Part shown: positions 8,768-36,090 of the stretch, in pieces
Layout of the letters: each line of letters starts with the position of its first letter
How positions within the stretch are numbered: the first letter of the stretch is position 1
Source of the DNA: an uncultured Gemmatimonadales bacterium
GTDB taxonomy: Bacteria > Gemmatimonadota > Gemmatimonadetes > Palauibacterales > Palauibacteraceae
Length of the DNA: 64,000 nucleotides
NCBI GenBank assembly: GCA_947259585.1
Contig: CAMYMV010000002.1
Coordinates: 3,925 to 67,924 of the forward strand
Direction: 5' to 3'
Position numbers and translations under genes: made by a program
Notes under the pieces: model-generated
Database searches by the model: none
Told to the model about the DNA's origin: nothing
Seen by the model: only the letters and a program-made list of their open reading frames with translations

Positions 8768-9056
8768 AGGGCACGGCCGCCGCGAGCTAGAGGCCACGGC
8801 CGTCGGCTGAGAATCGAGGATCTCCCGACTGGCGCTGGACGCGTGGTGGCAAGAAGGTGTAGACAAGGCCAAAGCGGCATAGGCCACGTCCGCACCTTAG
8901 GTGTGCCATGCACCCGGTCGCCTCGCACGTTGTCTGTAGCTCGACTGCCCGATCCCCGGTCAGCCCGCCACCCGAATCATCCCGATTCCGAAGAGCCAAG
9001 GCTCGCGAAGCTCGGGTGCATGCCCCACGGCTCGCACCGAGAAGGAGGTACCGAAG

Positions 9057-26052: not shown

Positions 26053-26769
26053 ATGCGAAAAGCGCGAAGCACCTGGCCTGCGATCTTGCGCCGTGGGGCG
26101 TCCGGCCCCGCGGGATGGCTCGGCTTCGCTCTGGTCGCCCTTCTGCTGATCCCTTCCATTCTCCCCAGCTGGGAACCTGGCTGGCGCAGGCTGGAGCTTG
26201 CTGCGCCCGATCCGCCGCCCACGCTCCTCATCATCGAGCCACCGCTGCTGGCCAAGCTTCAGACGCTTGCCGCGGGCCTGCGGGCCGAGATCGCGCTTTG
26301 TCTTTTCGGCTCTGTACAGGGTGACACCGCACGCCTCGACGACTTCCACATGCCGGAACCGACCCTCTCGACGGCCAACAAGTCGCTCGTTCGGCCCTGT
26401 CCGGAGAGGACGCTGGCCGTCTGGCACAACCACCCGCTCGACGGCACGTCCGGCTATTCGCTGAGGGGGACCTGGCGTACGAGCCAGCCGGCGCGGCAGG
26501 CGCACCGACTGTGCGTGCTGTCCAAGACGGACATTCAGACTTCGGTTCGGTTCAAGCATCCCTTCGTGATCATCGGCGTCGACCGCGACACCTGGTGTTG
26601 GTGGACCCGAGAGGAGGTCGAGCGCCTGGCCGAGAGCGGCGTCTGGCCGGGCCTTCCGGCTCCGGAGAGGCTGGTCACCCGGGATGGGGTGCCGTCATCG
26701 GAGGGACCGCTGGCCGGCCAGGGCGTGAGAAGAGGGAAGAACGGGCACAGCCTCGGCGCGCCTCAGTAA
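26053..26769 (+). CDS. Membrane-anchored hypothetical protein, possible JAB/MPN (RadC-like HNHP) metalloprotease fold
   Basis: GGGAGG RBS. N-terminal TM helix. WHNHPLDGTSGYS loosely fits the JAMM H-x-H...S..D motif with an upstream Glu. High GC3, so it is preferred over the overlapping antisense ORF 25798..26559. Confidence 0.4.
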   Translation: MRKARSTWPAILRRGASGPAGWLGFALVALLLIPSILPSWEPGWRRLELAAPDPPPTLLIIEPPLLAKLQTLAAGLRAEIALCLFGSVQGDTARLDDFHMPEPTLSTANKSLVRPCPERTLAVWHNHPLDGTSGYSLRGTWRTSQPARQAHRLCVLSKTDIQTSVRFKHPFVIIGVDRDTWCWWTREEVERLAESGVWPGLPAPERLVTRDGVPSSEGPLAGQGVRRGKNGHSLGAPQ

Positions 26770-26840
26770 CCGCGAACGCCCCCGCTCGACCGGCTCGGGG
26801 CGTTCTTGCCTTTCCGGGCCACAAGCCCGAGCCTTTCCAG

Positions 26841-27611
26841 ATGAGCCGGCCACTCATAGCCGCCAACTGGAAGATGCACCTCGGACGCGCGGAGGAGGCC
26901 CTCGGTCTCGTGCGTCGGATCCGGCACCCCCTGGGCAGGATCGACGGCGTGGAGGTCGTGGTGTGTCCGCCCTTCACGGTTCTGCCTCTCCTGGCCGAGG
27001 TGCTGGGGCCGTCGCCGATCGCGCTCGGTGCCCAGAACATGCACTGGGCGGAACGGGGCGCTCATACGGGGGAAGTCTCACCGAGCATGCTGGCCGGGCT
27101 CTGCCAGTACGTGATTCTCGGACACTCGGAGCGTCGCGCCACCGGCGGCTCGACGGAGGACGACGCCGCCATCAACCGGAAGCTGAAGGCCGCCTTCGGC
27201 GTCGGCCTGATTCCGATCGTCTGTGTCGGCGAGAGCGGCGAGCAGCGCGAGGCGGGCGCGACCGATGACGTCGTGCGATCCCAGGTCTCCCTCGCGCTGG
27301 CCGGGCTCGAGCCCGACCAGGCCCGCCGCTGCGTTATCGCTTACGAGCCGGTCTGGGCGATAGGCAGCGGCCGGCCCGCCACAGCAGCGGAGGCGAATCG
27401 CATCATCGCGTTGAGCGTCCGGGGGGCGGTGGCCGAGGGGTTCGGCGAGGAGGTGGCGCAAGCGGCGAGGGTCCTCTACGGCGGAAGCGTGCTTCCGGAC
27501 AACATCGCGGCCTTCACGGCCATGCCCGACATCGACGGAGCCCTGGTGGGCGGAGCCAGCCTCGGTCCCGAGTTCGTGGAGCTGGTGCTACGCGTTTCCG
27601 CCGAACGCTGA
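26841..27611 (+). CDS. tpiA: Triosephosphate isomerase
   Basis: AANWKMH and AYEPVWAIGSGRPAT signatures. 256 aa. The listed 366-aa ORF has a non-coding N-terminal extension. Confidence 0.95.
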   Translation: MSRPLIAANWKMHLGRAEEALGLVRRIRHPLGRIDGVEVVVCPPFTVLPLLAEVLGPSPIALGAQNMHWAERGAHTGEVSPSMLAGLCQYVILGHSERRATGGSTEDDAAINRKLKAAFGVGLIPIVCVGESGEQREAGATDDVVRSQVSLALAGLEPDQARRCVIAYEPVWAIGSGRPATAAEANRIIALSVRGAVAEGFGEEVAQAARVLYGGSVLPDNIAAFTAMPDIDGALVGGASLGPEFVELVLRVSAER

Positions 27612-27628
27612 CGGCCCGGTAGGCGGCT

Positions 27629-28273
27629 TCAGGTCGAAGGCGCGCAGAGGACCGTCTCGAACGATAGATACGCGATGCGCCCGAGCGGCCCCCCCTCGTA
27701 GTCCGCATCGATACGGGCGTCGAGGATCCTGAAGAGACCGGATCCTACGGGCATCGCCGACAGCGTATGTCGGGCTCTTTCGATCCGATCCGCCGCTCGA
27801 TCGCCAGGCCACAGCAGGACATTCACGGCGGCAGCCATCGTTTCGTAGTCTTCATCGTTCAAGACGAACGAGAAAGACCGCTCGCTCATCTTCACGGCCG
27901 CTTCCGCCGATATCCCATAACCGGTGTCAATGTAGCGAGCGTTGGAGAAACGATATGGAGGCGTCGCGACCCAGGAGTATTCTTTCTGCCGCGTATCGGC
28001 GCTGCGTACCTCGATCGTCCAGCCGGGTGGATTGGGCGGGCTCTCGGGGGTGGGAGCGAGCCGGAAGAGGAGGTTCGGTGCGAACCGCGCCTCGAATCGC
28101 TCTCCGGCGACGACCTGGCCAGCCAGCTTGACCGTGTCGCAGGTCGCGGGCAATCGCTCCTGCGTCGTGGCCATGTCAGGCGCGGCCAGGCCCGCCACTA
28201 CAACGAGCAGGGCAGCAAAGTGGAGAGCCGAGGCCTCCTGCTTCGAGCCGAGGCGCCGGGCGTGGCGTATCAC
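27629..28273 (-). CDS. Hypothetical exported protein; last gene of the BMC operon (start overlaps the upstream BMC-P stop)
   Basis: Signal peptide ALHFAALLVVVAGLAAPDMA. ATGA-type overlap with 28270..28542. Confidence 0.5.
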   Translation of the reverse strand: MIRHARRLGSKQEASALHFAALLVVVAGLAAPDMATTQERLPATCDTVKLAGQVVAGERFEARFAPNLLFRLAPTPESPPNPPGWTIEVRSADTRQKEYSWVATPPYRFSNARYIDTGYGISAEAAVKMSERSFSFVLNDEDYETMAAAVNVLLWPGDRAADRIERARHTLSAMPVGSGLFRILDARIDADYEGGPLGRIAYLSFETVLCAPST

Positions 28274-28542
28274 TCTGCCAGAGTCACCTCGTCGACCACG
28301 CCGACGATGACCGCGCGTACTGCGCCCGGATCCAGGTCCAGGATCTGACGTGCGCCATTCCCTTCGTCGATCACCAGGACCGTGTCGCCGGGACCGGCCT
28401 GAGCCACGTCCACAGCGATGTCGTAGTCCCCGCTCTCCCGGCCGTCAAGGTCGAGCTGATCGACGAGCAACAGCCGTCGGCTCTGGAGGTGGGAGATCTT
28501 GATCGTAGAGACGACGGACCCCGCCACGCGGCCGATATACAT
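28270..28542 (-). CDS. BMC vertex protein BMC-P (EutN/CcmL/PduN family), paralog 3
   Basis: MYIGRVAGSVVSTIK...LLLVDQLD...VAVD..QAGPGDTVLV..G: canonical EutN_CcmL pentamer motif. Confidence 0.85.
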   Translation of the reverse strand: MYIGRVAGSVVSTIKISHLQSRRLLLVDQLDLDGRESGDYDIAVDVAQAGPGDTVLVIDEGNGARQILDLDPGAVRAVIVGVVDEVTLAE

Positions 28543-28544
28543 GG

Positions 28545-28865
28545 TCAGGCGTCCTCCGCCACGCGGTGCCAGGTAGCGGTCGGTCCGGGGGCGTCCCCCG
28601 CGGTGTCGACTTCATCCACGAGTCCCGTGATCGCCAGGTCCACCGGTACGAACACCTCCGGGAGCGCCTGGGCGCCCTCGCGACTGGCCACCATGAACAC
28701 CAGGTGGCCGGGACCCGCCTGGGCGGTGGCATCGGCGGCCACCTGGGGCTCGCCCACAGGACTCAGCTCACGGTCCAGCGGCTGAACGACGAGGAGCTTG
28801 ATGCCCGCGAGCCCCTCGTACTTTCGGGTCGCCACGACCGTACCGATCACGCGCCCGAACTTCAC
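28545..28865 (-). CDS. BMC vertex protein BMC-P (EutN/CcmL/PduN family), paralog 2
   Basis: MKFGRVIGTVVATRKYEGLAGIKLLVVQPLD...AADATAQAGPGHLVFM. Confidence 0.8.
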   Translation of the reverse strand: MKFGRVIGTVVATRKYEGLAGIKLLVVQPLDRELSPVGEPQVAADATAQAGPGHLVFMVASREGAQALPEVFVPVDLAITGLVDEVDTAGDAPGPTATWHRVAEDA

Positions 28866-28899
28866 CGCGCTCTCCCCGGCACGCCCTCGAGAGGTCGCC

Positions 28900-29490
28900 T
28901 CACAGGTCTCTCAACACGCGGGCGCCGAAGCGACTCGCGTCCGAAACGTTCTCCCACATCTCGGCGTGCAGCTGCGAGATGACGACCTGTCGCACGAGCA
29001 GATCCGGCCGCTCCAGCGCGCCGACGCCGATCTCCACGGCGGCTTCCACATCGGCCACGAGCCCGGAGTAGAGGACGATCCCCTTTCCGCCGAGGCCGTC
29101 GGCCAGGCGGACCTCGACCAGGCGAACATCGGCCCCTTTCACTCCCGCATCCGCGGCGTGGATCGCCGAGGCGACGGTGGTCGTCTCGACGACGCCCAGA
29201 GCGTCCGCGGTGCCTGGCACCCGGCCGCCGCCGATGGCGTCCACGACCTCGGAATGAACGTTGGGAAGGAACACGAGGTCGAGGACCGTATCTCCGCCTG
29301 CCTCGCGTCCCGCATCCAGCGACTCCTGGACTTCCGCGACGGTACCGCCGATCAGAACGAGATAACGGCCCGGCTGCACCGTCCCGGCCCGGATGACGGC
29401 GATATCGGCCCGCTTGACCATGGCGTCGGCCGCCTCGATGCCTACGGCGATGCTGCTGAAGTCGATGAGGGCGAGGGCCGGGTCGATCAT
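28900..29490 (-). CDS. BMC-T shell protein with tandem BMC domains (PduT-like, no Cys)
   Basis: Two successive PF00936-like BMC domains: [26 protein letters not shown]...GG, then ALGVVETTTVASAIHAADAGVKGADVRLVEV...GLGGKG. Confidence 0.75.
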   Translation of the reverse strand: MIDPALALIDFSSIAVGIEAADAMVKRADIAVIRAGTVQPGRYLVLIGGTVAEVQESLDAGREAGGDTVLDLVFLPNVHSEVVDAIGGGRVPGTADALGVVETTTVASAIHAADAGVKGADVRLVEVRLADGLGGKGIVLYSGLVADVEAAVEIGVGALERPDLLVRQVVISQLHAEMWENVSDASRFGARVLRDL

Positions 29491-30953
29491 ACGATTCGGA
29501 ACGAGTCCTTCAGCACGCAGCGGCGGATACGGCTGAAGCTGATCGGGTTGGTGATTCCCTCTCCCGTCGGGCTGGCGATCGTGAAGGAGCAGAAGCCCTC
29601 GCCGCCGTAGCCGAGTCCGTCGAAAGACGCGCCGTTCTTGACGAAGATGCTGCAGTCCATCTCACGTGCCATCCGGCTCAGATGGTCCAGGTTCTTGGAG
29701 TGCATGACGGCGGTGTGCCTGAACCCGTGCTCCGCGGGCTTGGCGAGATCGATCCCCTCGTCCGCGTCCCGAACTCTCACGAGCGGCATGATCGGCATCA
29801 TCTGCTCGGAGAAGACGAGCGGGTCGTCCCGGTCCACCTCGGCCAGCACCAGCCGCACATCATCGCTTGCATCGATTCCGATCTCGGCCAGAAGCACCCC
29901 CGCGTTCTTGCCGATAAAATCGGCGTTCATCGTGCCGTGCCGTCCGGGCGATGGCGTGTCCTTGAACAGGGAGCCACGCAGCCGCTCCAGCTGGCGGCCG
30001 TCGATCTCCACCGCCCCGTGCGCGCACATGGCCGCCTTGAGGTCGTCGGCGATCGAGTCGGCGGCGAAGACCTCCTTCTCGTCGGTGCAGATGATGTTGT
30101 TGTCCAGCGAGGCTCCGCGGACGATGTCGCGTCCGGCCTGCGCCAGATCGGCGGTCTCATCCACGACCACGGGCGGGTTGCCCGGGCCGGCGCAGATCGC
30201 GCGCTTCCCGCTCTGCATCGCCGCGCGGACGACGCCGATGCCTCCCGTGACCACCAGGAGGTTGACCCCCTTGTGTCCCATGATCTGGCCCGCTGTCTCG
30301 ATCGTCGGCTCGGCCGTGGCGCAGACCAGGTTGGCGGGACCTCCCGCCTCGACGACGGCGTCGTTGACCAGCTGAACCGTCAGGTTGGAGCACCGCTTGG
30401 CTCCGGGATGGGCGTTGAACAGGACCGCGTTGCCCGCCGCCAACATGCTGACAGCGTTGCACACCACGGTCGAGATCGGGTTCGTGCTCGGGATGATGGA
30501 GCCGATGAGCCCGTACGGCGCGAACTCGACCACCGTGAGCCCGCCGTCGCCGCTCCAGGCGCGCGTGTCGAGAAACTCGGTACCCGGAGCCTTGTTCGCG
30601 TTCAGGAGGACCTTCTCGATCTTGTCCTCGTAGCGACCCATTCCGGTCTCCGCCCACGCCTCGTAGGCCAGGCGTTGGGCGTTCTCGCGCATCGTCCGGC
30701 GGACGTGGGCGATCATCCGCTCGCGGACCGAGAGGGGAAGGTCCTGGAGATGCTCGTACGCCCGCCGCGCGGCGTCTACCGCCGAGTCAACGTCGGGAAA
30801 CAGGTTGTCGCCATGGCGCAGCTCGGTCGGGGCGGGTGGCGGCTCGACCGCCTGCTTGGGCTCGGGCCTCGGGCCGTGCCCGACCCGTTGACCCTGCCGC
30901 AGCTCGGACATCACACGTTCGATGACCGCGTCGATCTCGGCCGCTTCCATCAT
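29487..30953 (-). CDS. CoA-acylating aldehyde dehydrogenase (EutE/PduP family) with N-terminal encapsulation-peptide-like helix
   Basis: ALDH fold with catalytic Cys in [12 protein letters not shown] and a GAG nucleotide loop. First 20 residues ([20 protein letters not shown]) form an amphipathic helix, as in BMC-targeted PduP. Confidence 0.9.
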
Positions 30954-31249
30954 CCGTCACGAGCCTTGTCGTACTTCACGTCGCCGTCGACCTCGAGGGT
31001 GTCGACGATCGCCATGATCACGCCGTCACAAGGGCGCCGGTCCGTCATCTCGGTCTGTCGGGCGGCGCTACCCGTGGCGTACAACACGACCTCGCCCATG
31101 CCGGCTCCGATGGCGTCCGCCGCGACGCGGTAGCCCGACGTCTTCTTCCCTTCGACGTCGAGCTGCCTCAGAACGAGGAACTTCAGGCCCTCGAGAGAGG
31201 GTTCCTTACGTGACGCGACGAGCGTTCCGACCACTCTTCCTAGCAGCAT
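30950..31249 (-). CDS. BMC vertex protein BMC-P (EutN/CcmL/PduN family), paralog 1
   Basis: [31 protein letters not shown]...[21 protein letters not shown]. Confidence 0.8.
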
Positions 31250-31255
31250 CGGCCG

Positions 31256-31582
31256 TTACTTCTTCGAGGTCTTGGACGCCTGCCCTCCCTGGCGACCCAG
31301 CGGCAGGGTACGATCCACGTTGCCGTGCGGGCGCGGAATCACGTGAATGGCCACGAGCTCGCCGACCTTCTCCGCACCGCGGGCCCCGGCCTCGACCGCC
31401 GCCTTCACGGCGGCCACATCTCCGCGCACGACGGCGGTCACGTACCCTCCGCCGATCTTCTCGTAGGCAACGAGGTCTACCTTGGCCGCCTTAACCATGG
31501 CGTCCGCGGCCTCGACCATCGCCGGATAGCTGCGCGTCTCGATCATGCCCAGCGCTTCGACCGCACCGTACTCCTCAGCCAT
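31256..31582 (-). CDS. BMC-H hexameric shell protein (PduA/EutM/CcmK type)
   Basis: Canonical BMC domain: [58 protein letters not shown]. Confidence 0.9.
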
Positions 31583-31669
31583 TCGTCCCTCCCGACGTGG
31601 GTTGTTTCCTCATGCTCCACACATCATCCAGTACTTGCTTCAGTTATTGCTTCAGATCCAGGTCGTGCA

Positions 31670-32308
31670 TCAGGTCCGTCGCTTCGTATCCACCACCCGT
31701 CCTTCGACGCCCTCGATGGCGGCGACGGCCGCTCCGTATCCGGCCATGATGTCTCGCTCCTCGCCGCCCAGGTACACCCGCCCGAAGCTTCCGAACGCGC
31801 GGACATCCAGGATGTTGATGTCCGCTTCCTTCTCTGCCTCGTTGGCGGCGAGCGACGCGTATCCGGCCGGCTCCACCTCGAGGACGTAAAGGGTCTGGCC
31901 GGCCAACAGCATGTGGCCGAAGCGCATGCGGTTGACCAGCTGTACCTGGTGGGCGTCGACGTGACGGATGATCTGGCTCGACACGACCCTCGGCTTGATC
32001 CGGTCCGATTCCTGGACCTCCAGGGCCTGCAGGATCGCCGCGCCCGCCGCCCGGACTTCCGCCTGTATTTCGTGGTGGACCTCCAGCAAGCCGAACAGGC
32101 GCTCGACGATCTGCATCCCGGGCCGGACCCGGGTGGATTTGAGCGCGATGTCGGTGATCCGGTTGATCTCGATTCCGGGCGAGATCTCAACCCAGAGTGA
32201 CGTGTCACCCGGAAGCGGGAGGAATCCGCGCGCCACCGTTCCCAGGTATGCCGCGTGCTGCGGCTGGAGGCTGTCGAGAAAAACGTAGGTGCGGAGATCA
32301 ACAGTCAT
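31670..32308 (-). CDS. Probable permuted tandem-BMC shell protein (EutL/PduB-like BMC-T)
   Basis: Two BMC-like half-domains: [20 protein letters not shown]..., and [56 protein letters not shown]. They resemble the EutL C-terminal repeat (ATYGIDAALKSADVQLATY). Lacks the PduL RHIH motifs and class II aldolase motifs. The assignment is an inference. Confidence 0.55.
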
Positions 32309-32317
32309 GGGAGCTCC

Positions 32318-33187
32318 TCACGAGTCAGTTCCCTCCACGATCTTCACGCTCGCACTGGCGCCGATTCGGGTGGCGCCGGCTTCGACCATTCTTTGCACGT
32401 CCTCGCGGGTTCGAATCCCGCCGGACGCCTTCACGCCGATCTTTGGCCCGACCACGCGACGCATGAGTGCCACGTCTTCCGCCGTCGCGCCTCCGGGGCC
32501 GAATCCCGTGGAGGTCTTCACGAAGTCTGCGCCGGCGACCTTGGCGAGCTGGGAGGCCGCGACCTTCTCATCGTTCGTGAGCAGTGCGGCTTCGATGATC
32601 ACCTTCAGGATACCCCCACCGGCGTGGACCGCCGTGGCGACGGAGGCGATGTCATGCTCCACGAGCTCGTAGTCACGTGACTTCAGCGCCCCGACGTTGA
32701 TCACCATGTCGACCTCTTTGGCGCCGTCGCGCACCGCTTTCTGCGCCTCGAACGTCTTCGCCTCCGTGGAGGTGGCGCCGAGCGGAAAGCCGACGACCGT
32801 GCAGGTGAGCACCTCGCTACCCTTGAGGAGATCGGCGCACAGTTTCACATGGGATGGGTTCACGCAGACCGACGCGAAGCCGTGCTTGCGCGCCTCGTAG
32901 CACAGCTGCGCGATCTCGTCGTGGGTCGCGTCGGGCCTCAGGAGCGTGTGGTCGATGAGATGGCTCAGGCTCCCGTCGGCGGGCACGATGCCCAGGGTGC
33001 TGGCGACCCGATCGGCGCCGGCCTTGACCACCGGCTGCACTCGATCGACGTAGTTGCGTCGTGAGAGCGGCGTCTCGAGGCCCGATGCCTCGCCGCCGAC
33101 GTCCAGACGGCCCTCCTCGACGAGGACCATCACCTCGTGCGTGATCTGCTCGATGATGCGCTCCAGCGTCGCCTCGTCCAACTTCAT
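32318..33187 (-). CDS. deoC: Deoxyribose-phosphate aldolase (DERA) with ~75-aa N-terminal extension (putative encapsulation peptide)
   Basis: Core is collinear with DERA ([20 protein letters not shown], catalytic Lys in [20 protein letters not shown]). N-terminal [26 protein letters not shown] is amphipathic and absent from free-standing DERAs. Confidence 0.9.
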
Positions 33188-33230
33188 CGCCCGAGACTCC
33201 CGGCGGGCCCGTGCCTGCCCCTGCTCACGC

Positions 33231-33980
33231 TCATGCTCTTAGGAACCGACGCTCGATGTCCATGATCTTCCCCACGCGCCGGGCGTGGCGCTCGCCGCCG
33301 GAAGGCGTGCGAAGCCAGGTCTCGACGATCCGCCGGCTCAAGCTCGGGCCGGTCAGGCCGGCGCCGAGCGTCAAGACGTTGGCCGCGTTGTGCTCCCTGC
33401 TGTTGACCGCCGTGGCCTCATCGTAGCACATCGCGGCTCGGATACCGGGCACCTTGTTCGCGGCCATGCAGGACCCGATCCCCGCGCCGTCCACCAGGAT
33501 TCCCCTCCACGCCTCGCCCCGAGCCACCAGTTGGGCCACCGACAGAGCGATATCGGGGTAATCGACCGATTCCGTGCTGTCGGTGCCGCAGTCGAGCACC
33601 TCGTACCCCAGCTCGCGTATCTGCGTCTTGAGACCCTCCTTCAGCTCGAATCCGCCGTGATCCGCTCCGATGGCGACGCGCTTGGACCCGGCGGGCCCGG
33701 AGGAGGCCGCCTCGAGGGCTGCCGGGAGTGGCCGTACCGGAGCGGATGAGCCCGCACCTCCGGCGGGCAACAGCGTGATCCGTCGCTCCATCGCGGCCTG
33801 ACGGGCCAGCGGAGTGACCATCGGGCTGGCCGGAAGCATGAACTCGCCGCCGGCAGGGACGTCGTGCAGGTCCTGCTGAGTAATCAGGGTCCGACCAGCC
33901 GGCCCTTGAGGATGGGTCTTCCCCACGGTCCGGTAGACGACCCGGCGAACCATCTCGCGGACCCGCTGCTCGTCGGTCAT
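33231..33980 (-). CDS. rpiB: Ribose-5-phosphate isomerase B (RpiB/LacAB family) with ~100-aa N-terminal extension
   Basis: C-terminal 150 aa match RpiB ([52 protein letters not shown]). N-terminal extension contains an amphipathic helix [17 protein letters not shown] plus a conserved-looking [39 protein letters not shown] segment. Start taken at MTDEQ to avoid overlap with tetR. Confidence 0.8.
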
Positions 33981-33982
33981 CG

Positions 33983-34699
33983 TCACCAGTAGCGCCATCC
34001 GGAAGCGTCAGCCGTTTCCGCCGGTTCCGCCGCCTCGACCGGTTCCAGAAACGAGTCTCCCTCCGCCGACCTGAACGCCTCCGCGGGTTCGCGGCGTGAG
34101 TAGCTCGCCAGCAGCCGGAAATAGGAGCGAAGCTGGGCCACGGCGGCGTCAAACGGATCCACGGAACCGGCCGCCCGGGCCTGCATCACTCCCCCCTCCA
34201 TCACGGCAAGGACCAATCGGGACAGGCTCTCCCGGTCGAGTTGGGCCGGGAGTCGGTCATCGGCGGCCGCGAGCCATGTCTGAACGCGGCCGGTCCATGC
34301 CGCGAAGTATTCGTTCATGAGAGCTCTCGCCCTCGGTTTTCTGTCGCCGAGCTCCAGAGCGAGGTTGCCGACGGGGCACCCTCTCGTGCATCCGCTGACC
34401 AGCAGTCCTCGCCGGTAGACCTCCAACAGGGCGAAAACCCGCTCGATCGGGTCGGAGCTCGCGCCCTCGGCAGGCAGGAGGATAAACGGCTCGAGAAGAG
34501 CGAGATGCCGCTCCAGGACGCCGATCAACAGGGCGTCCTTGCCCGGGAAGAAGTGATAGAGACTGCCGCTGTTGACGCCCGCGCGACGCAGTATCGTGGA
34601 GATACCCGTCGCCGAGTAGCCCTGCTCGTGGAAGAGTCGGGCCGCTTCCTCCAGAATCCGCTCTCTGGTCTCGGATTTCGGCGTCATTTGATTGAGCAA
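33983..34699 (-). CDS. TetR/AcrR family transcriptional regulator, first gene of the BMC operon
   Basis: N-terminal HTH RERILEEAARLFHEQGYSATGISTILRRAGVNSGSLYHFFPGKDAL. Likely true start is the ATG at 34687 (MTPKSE...); the listed start is a TTG at 34699. Confidence 0.85.
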   Translation of the reverse strand: MLNQMTPKSETRERILEEAARLFHEQGYSATGISTILRRAGVNSGSLYHFFPGKDALLIGVLERHLALLEPFILLPAEGASSDPIERVFALLEVYRRGLLVSGCTRGCPVGNLALELGDRKPRARALMNEYFAAWTGRVQTWLAAADDRLPAQLDRESLSRLVLAVMEGGVMQARAAGSVDPFDAAVAQLRSYFRLLASYSRREPAEAFRSAEGDSFLEPVEAAEPAETADASGWRYW

Positions 34700-34703
34700 T
34701 CAA
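34688..34703. promoter_or_regulatory. AT-rich inverted repeat TTGATTGAGCAATCAA abutting the tetR start codon (putative TetR operator O1)
   Basis: 7-bp perfect arms with a 2-bp spacer. AT-rich in a 68% GC genome. A second near-identical copy lies 116 bp upstream. Confidence 0.5.
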
Positions 34704-34803
34704 TAAACATTCCGGGCAATTCGACGGTTCAGAGCACCTGTCGAGAGAGATTACGCCCGTGCGCCCGACTCCCGGTCAACAGGACCCCGACGAGAGCCAT
34801 GGC

Positions 34804-34819
34804 TTGATTGATCAATCAA
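34804..34819. promoter_or_regulatory. Perfect 16-bp palindrome TTGATTGATCAATCAA (putative TetR operator O2) in the tetR upstream region
   Basis: Perfect palindrome. Both copies are followed by similar ~20-nt flanks (TAAACATTCCGGGCAAT vs TCATAATTCGCGGCAAAT). Confidence 0.5.
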
Positions 34820-34888
34820 TCATAATTCGCGGCAAATGTCAAGTCGCGGGTCGGATTCGGCCCGCTGGATCAGGTGCACCAAAGCGTC

Positions 34889-35464
34889 CTACCCGGAATC
34901 CAGCGCTCGACGCGCCGCCAGTGCCTCCGTATACCATAGGAGCTCGTCGATGAAGCGTTCAGCGCTCTTCTCGTACGCCGGATCCTCGGTCTCTCCCTCC
35001 TCATCGAAGCTGGATTGGACCTGCCTCACCGGAAACTTCGCCGGGATGGGAAGGGCGCCCAGCGAGAGAACCACCTGGCGGAGCTGGGTAAGAGCGCTCA
35101 GGCCGCCCCACGGCCCCGCCGACACGCTGATGATGCCGACGGGCTTCCGGCGGTATTCGGGGAGCAGGTGGTCCAGCGCATTCTTGAGCACTCCCGGATA
35201 CCCGCTGTTGTACTCCGGCGTGACGATCACCAGCGCATCGGCGCCGGCGATCCGTTCGCTGAACTCCGTCAGGCCGGGGGGTGGGTCGTCACGCTGCCGC
35301 AGTCGCTCCTCCATGATCGGGAAGTCGTATTGCGCCAGGTCGAGGAGGTCGGACTCGATCCCGTCCCTCTCCGCGAGTCGCCGCTGTATGAAGCGGGCCA
35401 CCTTGGGGGTCTGACGGCCGCGCCGCGTGCTGCCTACGATCACCGGTATGTTGAAAGCTCCCAC
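34889..35464 (-). CDS. NAD(P)H-dependent FMN reductase family oxidoreductase (YieF/ChrR/ArsH-like)
   Basis: PF03358-like flavodoxin fold: IPVIVGSTRRGRQTPKVARFI..., LVIVTPEYNSGYPGVLKNALD. Confidence 0.85.
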   Translation of the reverse strand: MGAFNIPVIVGSTRRGRQTPKVARFIQRRLAERDGIESDLLDLAQYDFPIMEERLRQRDDPPPGLTEFSERIAGADALVIVTPEYNSGYPGVLKNALDHLLPEYRRKPVGIISVSAGPWGGLSALTQLRQVVLSLGALPIPAKFPVRQVQSSFDEEGETEDPAYEKSAERFIDELLWYTEALAARRALDSG

Positions 35465-35550
35465 GGAAGCCGCTCCTCCACCTTGAGTTGTCCGAGTCCT
35501 CGAGCCGACTATGGGTCGAGAGAGTTCAGCCGGAGCCGGCCGAAAGGGGG

Positions 35551-36090
35551 TTACCAGCTCCCGGGCTCCCCGCCCGGATCTCCGAGTTTCCGGAACGACG
35601 GGGCCTCGGGATCTCGAACGCTGCAGTTCGCCTCGAACCGAAGGGTGGTACCCCCGTCGGGCCGATCGCCGCTCTTGTACATGTCGTACGTGAGCAGGAC
35701 CGGAGCGCTGTTCCTAACGAAGCTGCCGGGCACGACATCGACCTCCATCGTCAGCACGCCGCCCGCCGAGGCGGGGCGGGGAATCCACGCGACGCCCGCG
35801 TCCGACCGGATCACGACCTCGTCGGTGTCCTTCCACTTTCGAAGGCTCACGTTCACCATATTGTATCGTCCGCCGGTCGCCTCACGGGTGACTCGGTTCG
35901 CCTCCGTCGTAAAGCCGAGCTCGGGCCGCGAGGCGTCGTCACAGAGGATCCGGATCTTGTATTCGTTCTCCTCGGTCCGAACAACCGCAGACCCCTCCGA
36001 CAGCTCGCGCCGCGACTCGTCCTGGGCAGCCCCGACCGAGGGTGTGAGCAGCAGCACCGACAACACCCAGAGCGAGTTTCTCATAGTCAT
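35551..36090 (-). CDS. Hypothetical secreted protein
   Basis: Signal peptide MTMRNSLWVLSVLLLTPSVGAAQ. No motif recognised. Confidence 0.45.
   Translation of the reverse strand: MTMRNSLWVLSVLLLTPSVGAAQDESRRELSEGSAVVRTEENEYKIRILCDDASRPELGFTTEANRVTREATGGRYNMVNVSLRKWKDTDEVVIRSDAGVAWIPRPASAGGVLTMEVDVVPGSFVRNSAPVLLTYDMYKSGDRPDGGTTLRFEANCSVRDPEAPSFRKLGDPGGEPGSW

Follow-up and report, generated by a model that had tools for sequence, protein, structure and literature searches.

Few bacterial organelles are as widespread as microcompartments of the sugar-phosphate-utilization (SPU) type, the regulation of which is, to our knowledge, essentially undescribed. Their loci are recognized by a DeoC-type aldolase (PF01791) encoded together with RpiB (PF02502) and an acylating aldehyde dehydrogenase (PMC8217296; PMC11585597). 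The one characterized SPU6 locus, from Chloroflexi, consists of an rpiB-DERA-aldehyde dehydrogenase-shell operon headed by a one-component regulator of the GntR/UTRA type, and no operator was described there (PMC11585597). SPU-like loci of Gemmatimonadetes have been catalogued only as fragmentary 'FRAG8', with no mention of a regulator (PMC8217296 supplement). Our own literature search found neither a TetR-regulated microcompartment nor an operator in SPU loci. Here we analyze a 64,000-nucleotide stretch of DNA from an uncultured Gemmatimonadales bacterium (contig CAMYMV010000002.1; hereafter the window), which its homologues place in Gemmatimonadota. In the window, an 11-gene SPU-like microcompartment operon begins with tetR, and two 16-bp palindromes lie upstream of this gene. 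Comparative sequence evidence makes it probable that the palindromes are operators of the adjacent TetR and that this protein represses both tetR and the microcompartment operon. The proposed system is a standard, textbook TetR switch, newly assigned to a little-studied organelle locus.

In the TetR paradigm, tetO1 and tetO2 each bind one dimer and overlap promoter elements; they serve both autoregulation and control of the neighboring gene, and inducer releases the repressor. The window resembles this arrangement in having two palindromic sites beside the regulator gene. However, tetO1 and tetO2 are close together in the divergent tetR/tetA gap, whereas here tetR and its putative targets are read in the same direction within one operon and the sites are 116 bp apart. 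In E. coli nemRA-gloA, which NemR represses, the repressor gene comes first in the operon, as tetR does in the window, and a 16-bp palindrome (TAGACCGACTGGTCTA) is found ~22 bp upstream of ydhM/nemR (PMC2475637). NemR is the fourth-best solved relative of the window TetR and matches it over the full length (E = 1e-12), although the relationship is distant. Its operator has TAGA/TCTA arms and other inner bases, where the window has TTGA/TCAA; it has a single box instead of a widely spaced pair; and it regulates detoxification enzymes, not an organelle. The arms themselves are those of the E. coli RutR box (TTGACCAnnTGGTCAA), a 16-bp inverted repeat of the form TTGA...TCAA that is bound by a TetR-family dimer (PMC2475637). 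The RutR inner bases are CCA/TGG, as opposed to wYG/CRw here, and RutR matches the window TetR in the N-terminal DNA-binding domain only. RutR also differs in sensing uracil and in often binding inside genes. AcuR (Rhodobacter, acrylate-responsive) and YxaF/LmrA (Bacillus) share the TetR_C_13 domain family with the window TetR, YxaF being its second-best and AcuR its third-best match in the PDB.

A palindromic motif upstream of tetR

The elements at the start of tetR are as follows, in window coordinates.

34688..34703, no strand assigned: putative proximal operator O1, TTGATTGAGCAATCAA, 7/8 arm pairs, adjoins the tetR start codon
34804..34819, no strand assigned: putative distal operator O2, TTGATTGATCAATCAA, perfect palindrome, fits the family consensus TTGAwYGATCRwTCAA
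33983..34687, minus strand: tetR, 234 aa, TetR_N plus TetR_C_13 (LmrA/YxaF-like) by Pfam, without a Shine-Dalgarno sequence

The original prediction had placed two palindromes 116 bp apart at these positions, and its coordinates were right. The second is perfect and the first pairs in 7 of 8 arm positions; 116 bp is their start-to-start distance, and the gap between O1 and the tetR ATG (34687-34685, minus strand) is zero, so that the first palindrome does abut the start codon. The similar flanks of ~20 nt that had been noticed beside each site are real and emerged from a repeat search as a 32-nt direct repeat (34688-34719 and 34804-34835, 81% identity), with 16 nt of flank beyond the palindrome common to both copies. 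Two details needed correction: the sites are both upstream of the tetR start rather than on either side of it, and the GC content, given as 68% for the genome, measures 66.9% in the window.

Both sites fall within the single 201-bp gap between tetR and a co-directional FMN-reductase gene. When the whole window was searched with the palindrome pattern at up to three mismatches, O1 and O2 were the only matches, against 0.14 expected from shuffled sequence, and none of 100 shuffles reached the observed count; a chance origin of the two sites is excluded. The degenerate family motif likewise matches O1 and O2 only. The window contains five perfect 16-bp palindromes, and the four besides O2 are all GC-rich. 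O1 and the 22 nt upstream of it are 100% conserved between the window and loci L001-L004, and O2 is kept with the same upstream -35 box in L001-L004, L007, and L009.

The 32-nt repeat takes in promoter spacer and operator together and suggests that one module was duplicated from the other. The flank shared beyond the palindrome is what such a duplication would leave, and the repeat might then be a remnant of that event, or of a small mobile element, with a second copy that has no regulatory role. We regard such an idle copy as extremely improbable: two or more sites 58-129 bp apart recur in distant BMC-linked loci (BMC, bacterial microcompartment) with unrelated flanks, the repeat is found nowhere else in the window, and a consensus -35 box has been gained or retained at the distal copy.

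The motif was then traced through 80 loci with TetR homologues (51-95% identical) from species-representative GTDB genomes; seven further loci, L081-L087, were added to these, giving 87 in all. A relaxed form, TTGAnnGnnCnnTCAA, was searched at up to one mismatch, and the zone from -200 to +10 of the tetR starts was compared with the remaining DNA. There were 148 matches in the 15.2 kb of upstream zone and 22 in the other 567 kb, an enrichment of ~250-fold over the surrounding DNA. The motif precedes tetR in 76 of the 80 loci, which span Gemmatimonadota, Phycisphaerae and other Planctomycetota, Acidobacteriota, Eisenbacteria, and Proteobacteria. In the position frequency matrix, which gives the consensus TTGAwYGATCRwTCAA, positions that were not used for selection are also informative. 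Microcompartment genes lie downstream in only 18 of the 80 loci, all from Gemmatimonadota, and the non-BMC homologues L081 and L084, which were checked with gene calls, precede SRPBCC/AHSA1 (Polyketide_cyc2) genes. The presence of the motif whatever genes lie downstream of tetR is the signature of an autoregulatory operator. Throughout the subfamily, the residues of the helix-turn-helix and of the recognition-helix region show little or no variation, as would be expected if its members share an operator. The suggestion that the palindromes are TetR operators thus gains strong support from a motif that is nearly absent elsewhere in the sampled DNA.

Instead of a repressor site, the conserved sequence might be part of a promoter, a hairpin in RNA or DNA, or a target for some unlinked DNA-binding protein. 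The left arm, TTGAnn, does resemble a -35 or -10 hexamer; palindromes 21-23 bp apart in the non-BMC loci could double as -35 and -10; and a 16-nt palindrome is able to fold as a hairpin. However, conservation is equally strong in the two arms, and a promoter would have no need of the right one (TCAA, C10). Complementarity between half-sites at the variable positions was 0.40-0.44, within the 0.31-0.49 expected under independence. Half-sites that vary independently fit a protein dimer site and argue against a hairpin, a reading that we rejected for this lack of covariation. Rfam returned no riboswitch or other RNA match in window positions 34500-35000 at E up to 1. Furthermore, the motif travels with tetR across phyla and gene contexts, which points to TetR itself as the binding protein. 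Taken with these observations, a site of some other kind is very unlikely, and we continue to treat the palindromes as putative TetR operators.

Spacing between sites separates the two groups of loci. Upstream of the non-BMC homologues there are usually two or three palindromes at intervals of 19-23 bp, whereas the sites in BMC-linked loci are 58-129 bp apart. The individual spacings (116-118, 126, 76, 81-85, 88, 58, 84, and 125-129 bp) share no common helical phase, so DNA looping between in-phase operators is unsupported. Outside Gemmatimonadota (L081 4978-5012, L084 4973-4992, and many of L011-L079), the TTGAnn of the upstream palindrome is often the -35 for the next.

The position matrix can be used for regulon searches, both in Gemmatimonadota and in a TetR subfamily that covers at least five phyla.

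Candidate promoters at the two sites

The promoter elements considered in the 201-bp gap are these.

34837..34842, minus strand: predicted -35 hexamer TTGACA of promoter P2, exactly 17 nt upstream of O2
34814..34822, minus strand: predicted extended -10, TG-a-TTGATT, in the left half of O2, placed by geometry only
34748..34779, minus strand: TTGACC-20 nt-TAATCT, the promoter proposed in the original prediction, not supported
34704..34725, minus strand: 22-nt block upstream of O1, GTCGAATTGCCCGGAATGTTTA, includes the flank repeated at O2

A TTGACA-like hexamer (one mismatch allowed) occurs 17 nt upstream of the palindrome at 26 sites when all loci are counted. At any other spacing there are at most five such sites, and we estimate that ~0.7 per spacing would be expected by chance. 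In alignment A3, which compares the window with four close relatives (91-95% TetR identity), the block CGACTTGACATT that includes TTGACA is invariant. With TTGACA exactly 17 nt upstream, O2 probably spans the -10 region and the start site of P2, and transcription is predicted to start near 34808-34806. The hexamers that were originally proposed as a promoter between the two sites, TTGACC (34779-34774) and TAATCT (34753-34748), do exist. Their promoter role is not supported: the 20-nt spacer is too long and both hexamers are in variable columns of alignment A3. By its conserved spacing to the palindrome, the TTGACA upstream of O2 is the better candidate for a -35 than TTGACC.

O1 shares the geometry of O2 but has a poor -35 (GTCGAA or TCGAAT). 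The 22-nt block immediately upstream of it is identical in the window and L001-L004, amid a 100-nt spacer that otherwise varies; the block may be a further binding site or P1, a weak promoter for leaderless mRNA. A palindrome lies within ~30 nt or less of the tetR start in most of the 18 BMC-linked loci, and those start-proximal palindromes whose sequence was examined abut or overlap the start codon. In L014, L022, and the L036 clade, a single promoter-operator stands beside the start, in a geometry that predicts a leader of a few nucleotides. When the upstream sequences of every operon gene in the window were compared, DERA, BMC-T, BMC-H, two BMC-P, and the FMN reductase have GGAG-type Shine-Dalgarno sequences and tetR has none, which fits leaderless or near-leaderless translation of tetR.

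In the model that we infer, one TetR dimer would bind each 16-bp site, and the dimer on O2 would block RNA polymerase at a sigma-70-type promoter (-35 TTGACA). O1 would either stop transcripts that start at the distal promoter, as a second block further downstream, or serve as the operator of a weak promoter for leaderless tetR. Through the same sites, TetR would exert negative autoregulation and would keep the presumably co-transcribed organelle genes off until an inducer released it. The 16-bp operator, the candidate promoter, and the cognate repressor make up a testable switch for an SPU-type organelle.

The abutting palindrome affects how tetR is annotated. Gene callers often start TetR open reading frames (ORFs) at the operator TTG (P0053, P0079, P0107, P0031, and P0023), and the resulting N-termini, M-I-D-Q-S or M-V-D-Q-S, are the palindrome translated. 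These starts are probably an annotation artifact in most loci. L086 stands apart, as the TTG of its palindrome (9001) is the only available tetR start. We rejected the possibility that the TetR reading frame takes in the palindrome, given an in-frame TGA inside the window palindrome and frames that differ among loci. A small ORF between the two sites (ATG at 34800, 23 codons) was also dropped, its ATG being missing in L001 and L003.

Probable control of the microcompartment genes

All genes of the operon are on the minus strand, in the following order after tetR; the gene upstream of tetR is given last.

33231..33998, minus strand: rpiB, RpiB PF02502, E = 2e-51
32318..33187, minus strand: DERA, deoC TIGR00126, 280 bits
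31670..32308, minus strand: BMC-T, 212 aa, Pfam BMC barely matched (E = 7e-4), relatives annotated as CsoS1D_N
31256..31582, minus strand: BMC-H, shell gene
30950..31249, minus strand: BMC-P, confirmed by Pfam
between BMC-P 30950..31249 and BMC-T 28900..29490, minus strand: acylating aldehyde dehydrogenase, PRK15398, 626 bits
28900..29490, minus strand: second BMC-T, shell gene
28545..28865 and 28270..28542, minus strand: BMC-P pair, from ORF translations and equivalent EutN_CcmL genes in relatives
last operon gene, minus strand: 214-aa protein of unknown type
27629..33998, minus strand: genes downstream of tetR, from rpiB to the 214-aa protein, an SPU-like microcompartment locus
34889..35464, minus strand: NADPH-dependent FMN reductase, upstream of and co-directional with tetR

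The SPU-type gene set is complete (DeoC-type aldolase, RpiB, and acylating aldehyde dehydrogenase), as is the shell set, with BMC-H, BMC-T, and a triplet of BMC-P; the BMC-T of relatives carries CsoS1D_N. The last 16 nt of tetR overlap rpiB, and the remaining intergenic gaps are all 87 nt or less. Since tetR heads the operon and overlaps rpiB, repression should also cover the organelle genes. Control of these genes in the window follows from gene order and is likely, not proven. Eighteen of the 80 GTDB loci, all from Gemmatimonadota, have the order tetR-rpiB-DERA-BMC, as do L086 and L087. Four relatives provide a second line of evidence, in that the operator recurs as an additional, exact copy within their BMC operon, in the gap between BMC-H and BMC-P.

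L036, 7425-7440: exact motif
L047, 7433-7448: exact motif
L078, 4036-4051: exact motif
L080, 4771-4786: exact motif

The window has no equivalent site because its BMC-H/BMC-P gap is only 6 nt. In the relatives, which belong to one Gemmatimonadota clade, a GC-rich hairpin immediately precedes the extra copy, and BMC-P starts ~30 nt after the copy.

Several observations weigh against control of the organelle genes from the sites upstream of tetR, or against the promoter on which it would depend. The first is locus L085 (1418-9693), where the BMC operon is not joined to tetR and its operators. There, a HAD-rpiB-DERA-shell-aldehyde dehydrogenase-shell operon is followed by a convergent triosephosphate isomerase (TIM) gene and then by tetR, whose product bears the C-terminal tail described below, and an NTP-transferase gene. 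Motifs are located at 8847, 8851, and 8976, and the gap from which TIM and tetR diverge holds two operators; the BMC operon of L085 has no upstream motif even when two mismatches are allowed. In L085 the operator therefore follows tetR and not the organelle genes, so the link to the latter follows from gene order and does not hold in every locus. Second, no BMC genes are found near the homologues of 52-64% identity from other phyla, which means that the subfamily is not BMC-specific. Third, an internal promoter may exist inside tetR. Lastly, the -10-like hexamer TTGATT does not have the usual A at position 2, and a scan for canonical sigma-70 promoters gave zero matches in 33900-35600 and in 27000-35600; the promoter assignment comes from comparative evidence only. 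A scan of the same two intervals for intrinsic terminators also gave zero matches.

These observations raise the alternative that the operators serve only tetR autoregulation or another target, and that the BMC genes are expressed mainly from a promoter of their own. In its favor, tetR and two operators form a separate unit with the TIM and NTP-transferase genes in L085, and probably in L058, the BMC operon of L085 stands without an upstream motif, and members of the subfamily regulate unrelated SRPBCC/AHSA1 genes in other phyla. The layout of the window speaks for the opposite conclusion. There is neither a motif nor a gap at the tetR-rpiB junction, and the 16-nt overlap leaves no room for an intergenic promoter. 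The tetR-first order in 18 of 80 GTDB loci plus L086 and L087, the operator inside the BMC operon in four loci, and the W-R-x-W tail found only on TetRs beside BMC loci also count against separate expression. On balance, we consider it unlikely that the BMC genes depend mainly on their own promoter, and favor shared repression of tetR and the organelle genes. The original proposal that the pair of sites controls the downstream BMC operon therefore has only indirect support, from gene order and from the extra operators of four relatives, while the detached arrangement of L085 goes against it. Locus L058 (438-2650) had been a candidate for a tail-bearing TetR without a microcompartment; it was dropped because it lies at a contig edge and has the same gene downstream as L085, in which the BMC operon is situated just upstream.

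The FMN-reductase gene is found upstream of tetR in the closest relatives only (L001-L003) and is thus not a conserved partner. At the other end of the window operon, a triosephosphate isomerase gene (26511-27611, plus strand) converges on the last gene, as in L085.

The TetR protein and its C-terminal tail

The tetR product matches PF00440 (E = 3e-16) and PF16925/PF21993 (E = 5e-16) in Pfam. In an AF2 model of mean pLDDT 86.7, the TetR core comprises nine helices, all predicted with confidence, and the tail a short helix of low confidence. The nearest solved structure is 3qbm, an uncharacterized TetR from Chloroflexus, and YxaF, AcuR, and NemR come next. The best NCBIfam match is the AcuR model (NF051457), and no match to the NemR model is listed in that search. 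At 87 bits the AcuR score is below the cut-off of 247, so the window protein is not an equivalog and the AcuR ligand is not transferable.

NemR and AcuR are electrophile sensors. Cys104 of the window TetR (34376-34378, minus strand) belongs to a conserved GCPVGN motif. Its conservation is at least 90%, and it lines up with the GCL-motif Cys of both E. coli NemR (4yze) and AcuR (3bru). The aligned Cys of 4yze is probably Cys106, the sensing residue of NemR, if a two-residue tag offset is allowed for. The alignment with two electrophile sensors makes an aldehyde or another electrophile as plausible an inducer as deoxyribose-5-phosphate, one of the ligands originally put forward, and our hypothesis is that Cys104 could sense such a compound covalently. 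Cys104 is equally conserved in the non-BMC homologues.

The C-terminus differs between the two groups of homologues.

33986..34090, minus strand: disordered acidic TetR tail, ~residues 200-234, with W-R-Y-W at 33997-33986

From about residue 209, pLDDT is <50 for most residues. All 18 BMC-linked GTDB TetRs, the window TetR, those of L085-L087, and most of the long homologues end in W-R-x-W, and the acidic linker ahead of this motif varies in length; in one homologue the ending is W-K-A-W. None of the ~61 shorter non-BMC homologues in the GTDB loci has this ending, nor does any other ORF among ~7,900 stop-to-stop segments from the window and the 87 loci. From its distribution, the tail looks like a short docking motif that was gained on association with the microcompartment locus, and it is the only feature of the system that might point to something new. 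A speculative and rather doubtful extension is that the tail docks onto a shell or cargo protein, such that the repressor would be titrated by the organelle or by its free subunits and transcription of the operon would be coupled to assembly state. The wide operator spacing (58-129 bp, compared with 19-23 bp) and the possible pairing of a leadered with a leaderless promoter could be part of the same specialization.

Two features of the encoded microcompartment proteins were also observed. RpiB and DERA have N-terminal extensions of ~105 and ~75 residues, respectively, ahead of their catalytic domains, and these match the encapsulation-peptide extensions described in SPU enzymes (PMC11585597). 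The BMC-T encoded at 31670-32308 is 88-99% identical across Gemmatimonadota, compared with 71-82% for the enzymes and 55-69% for TetR.

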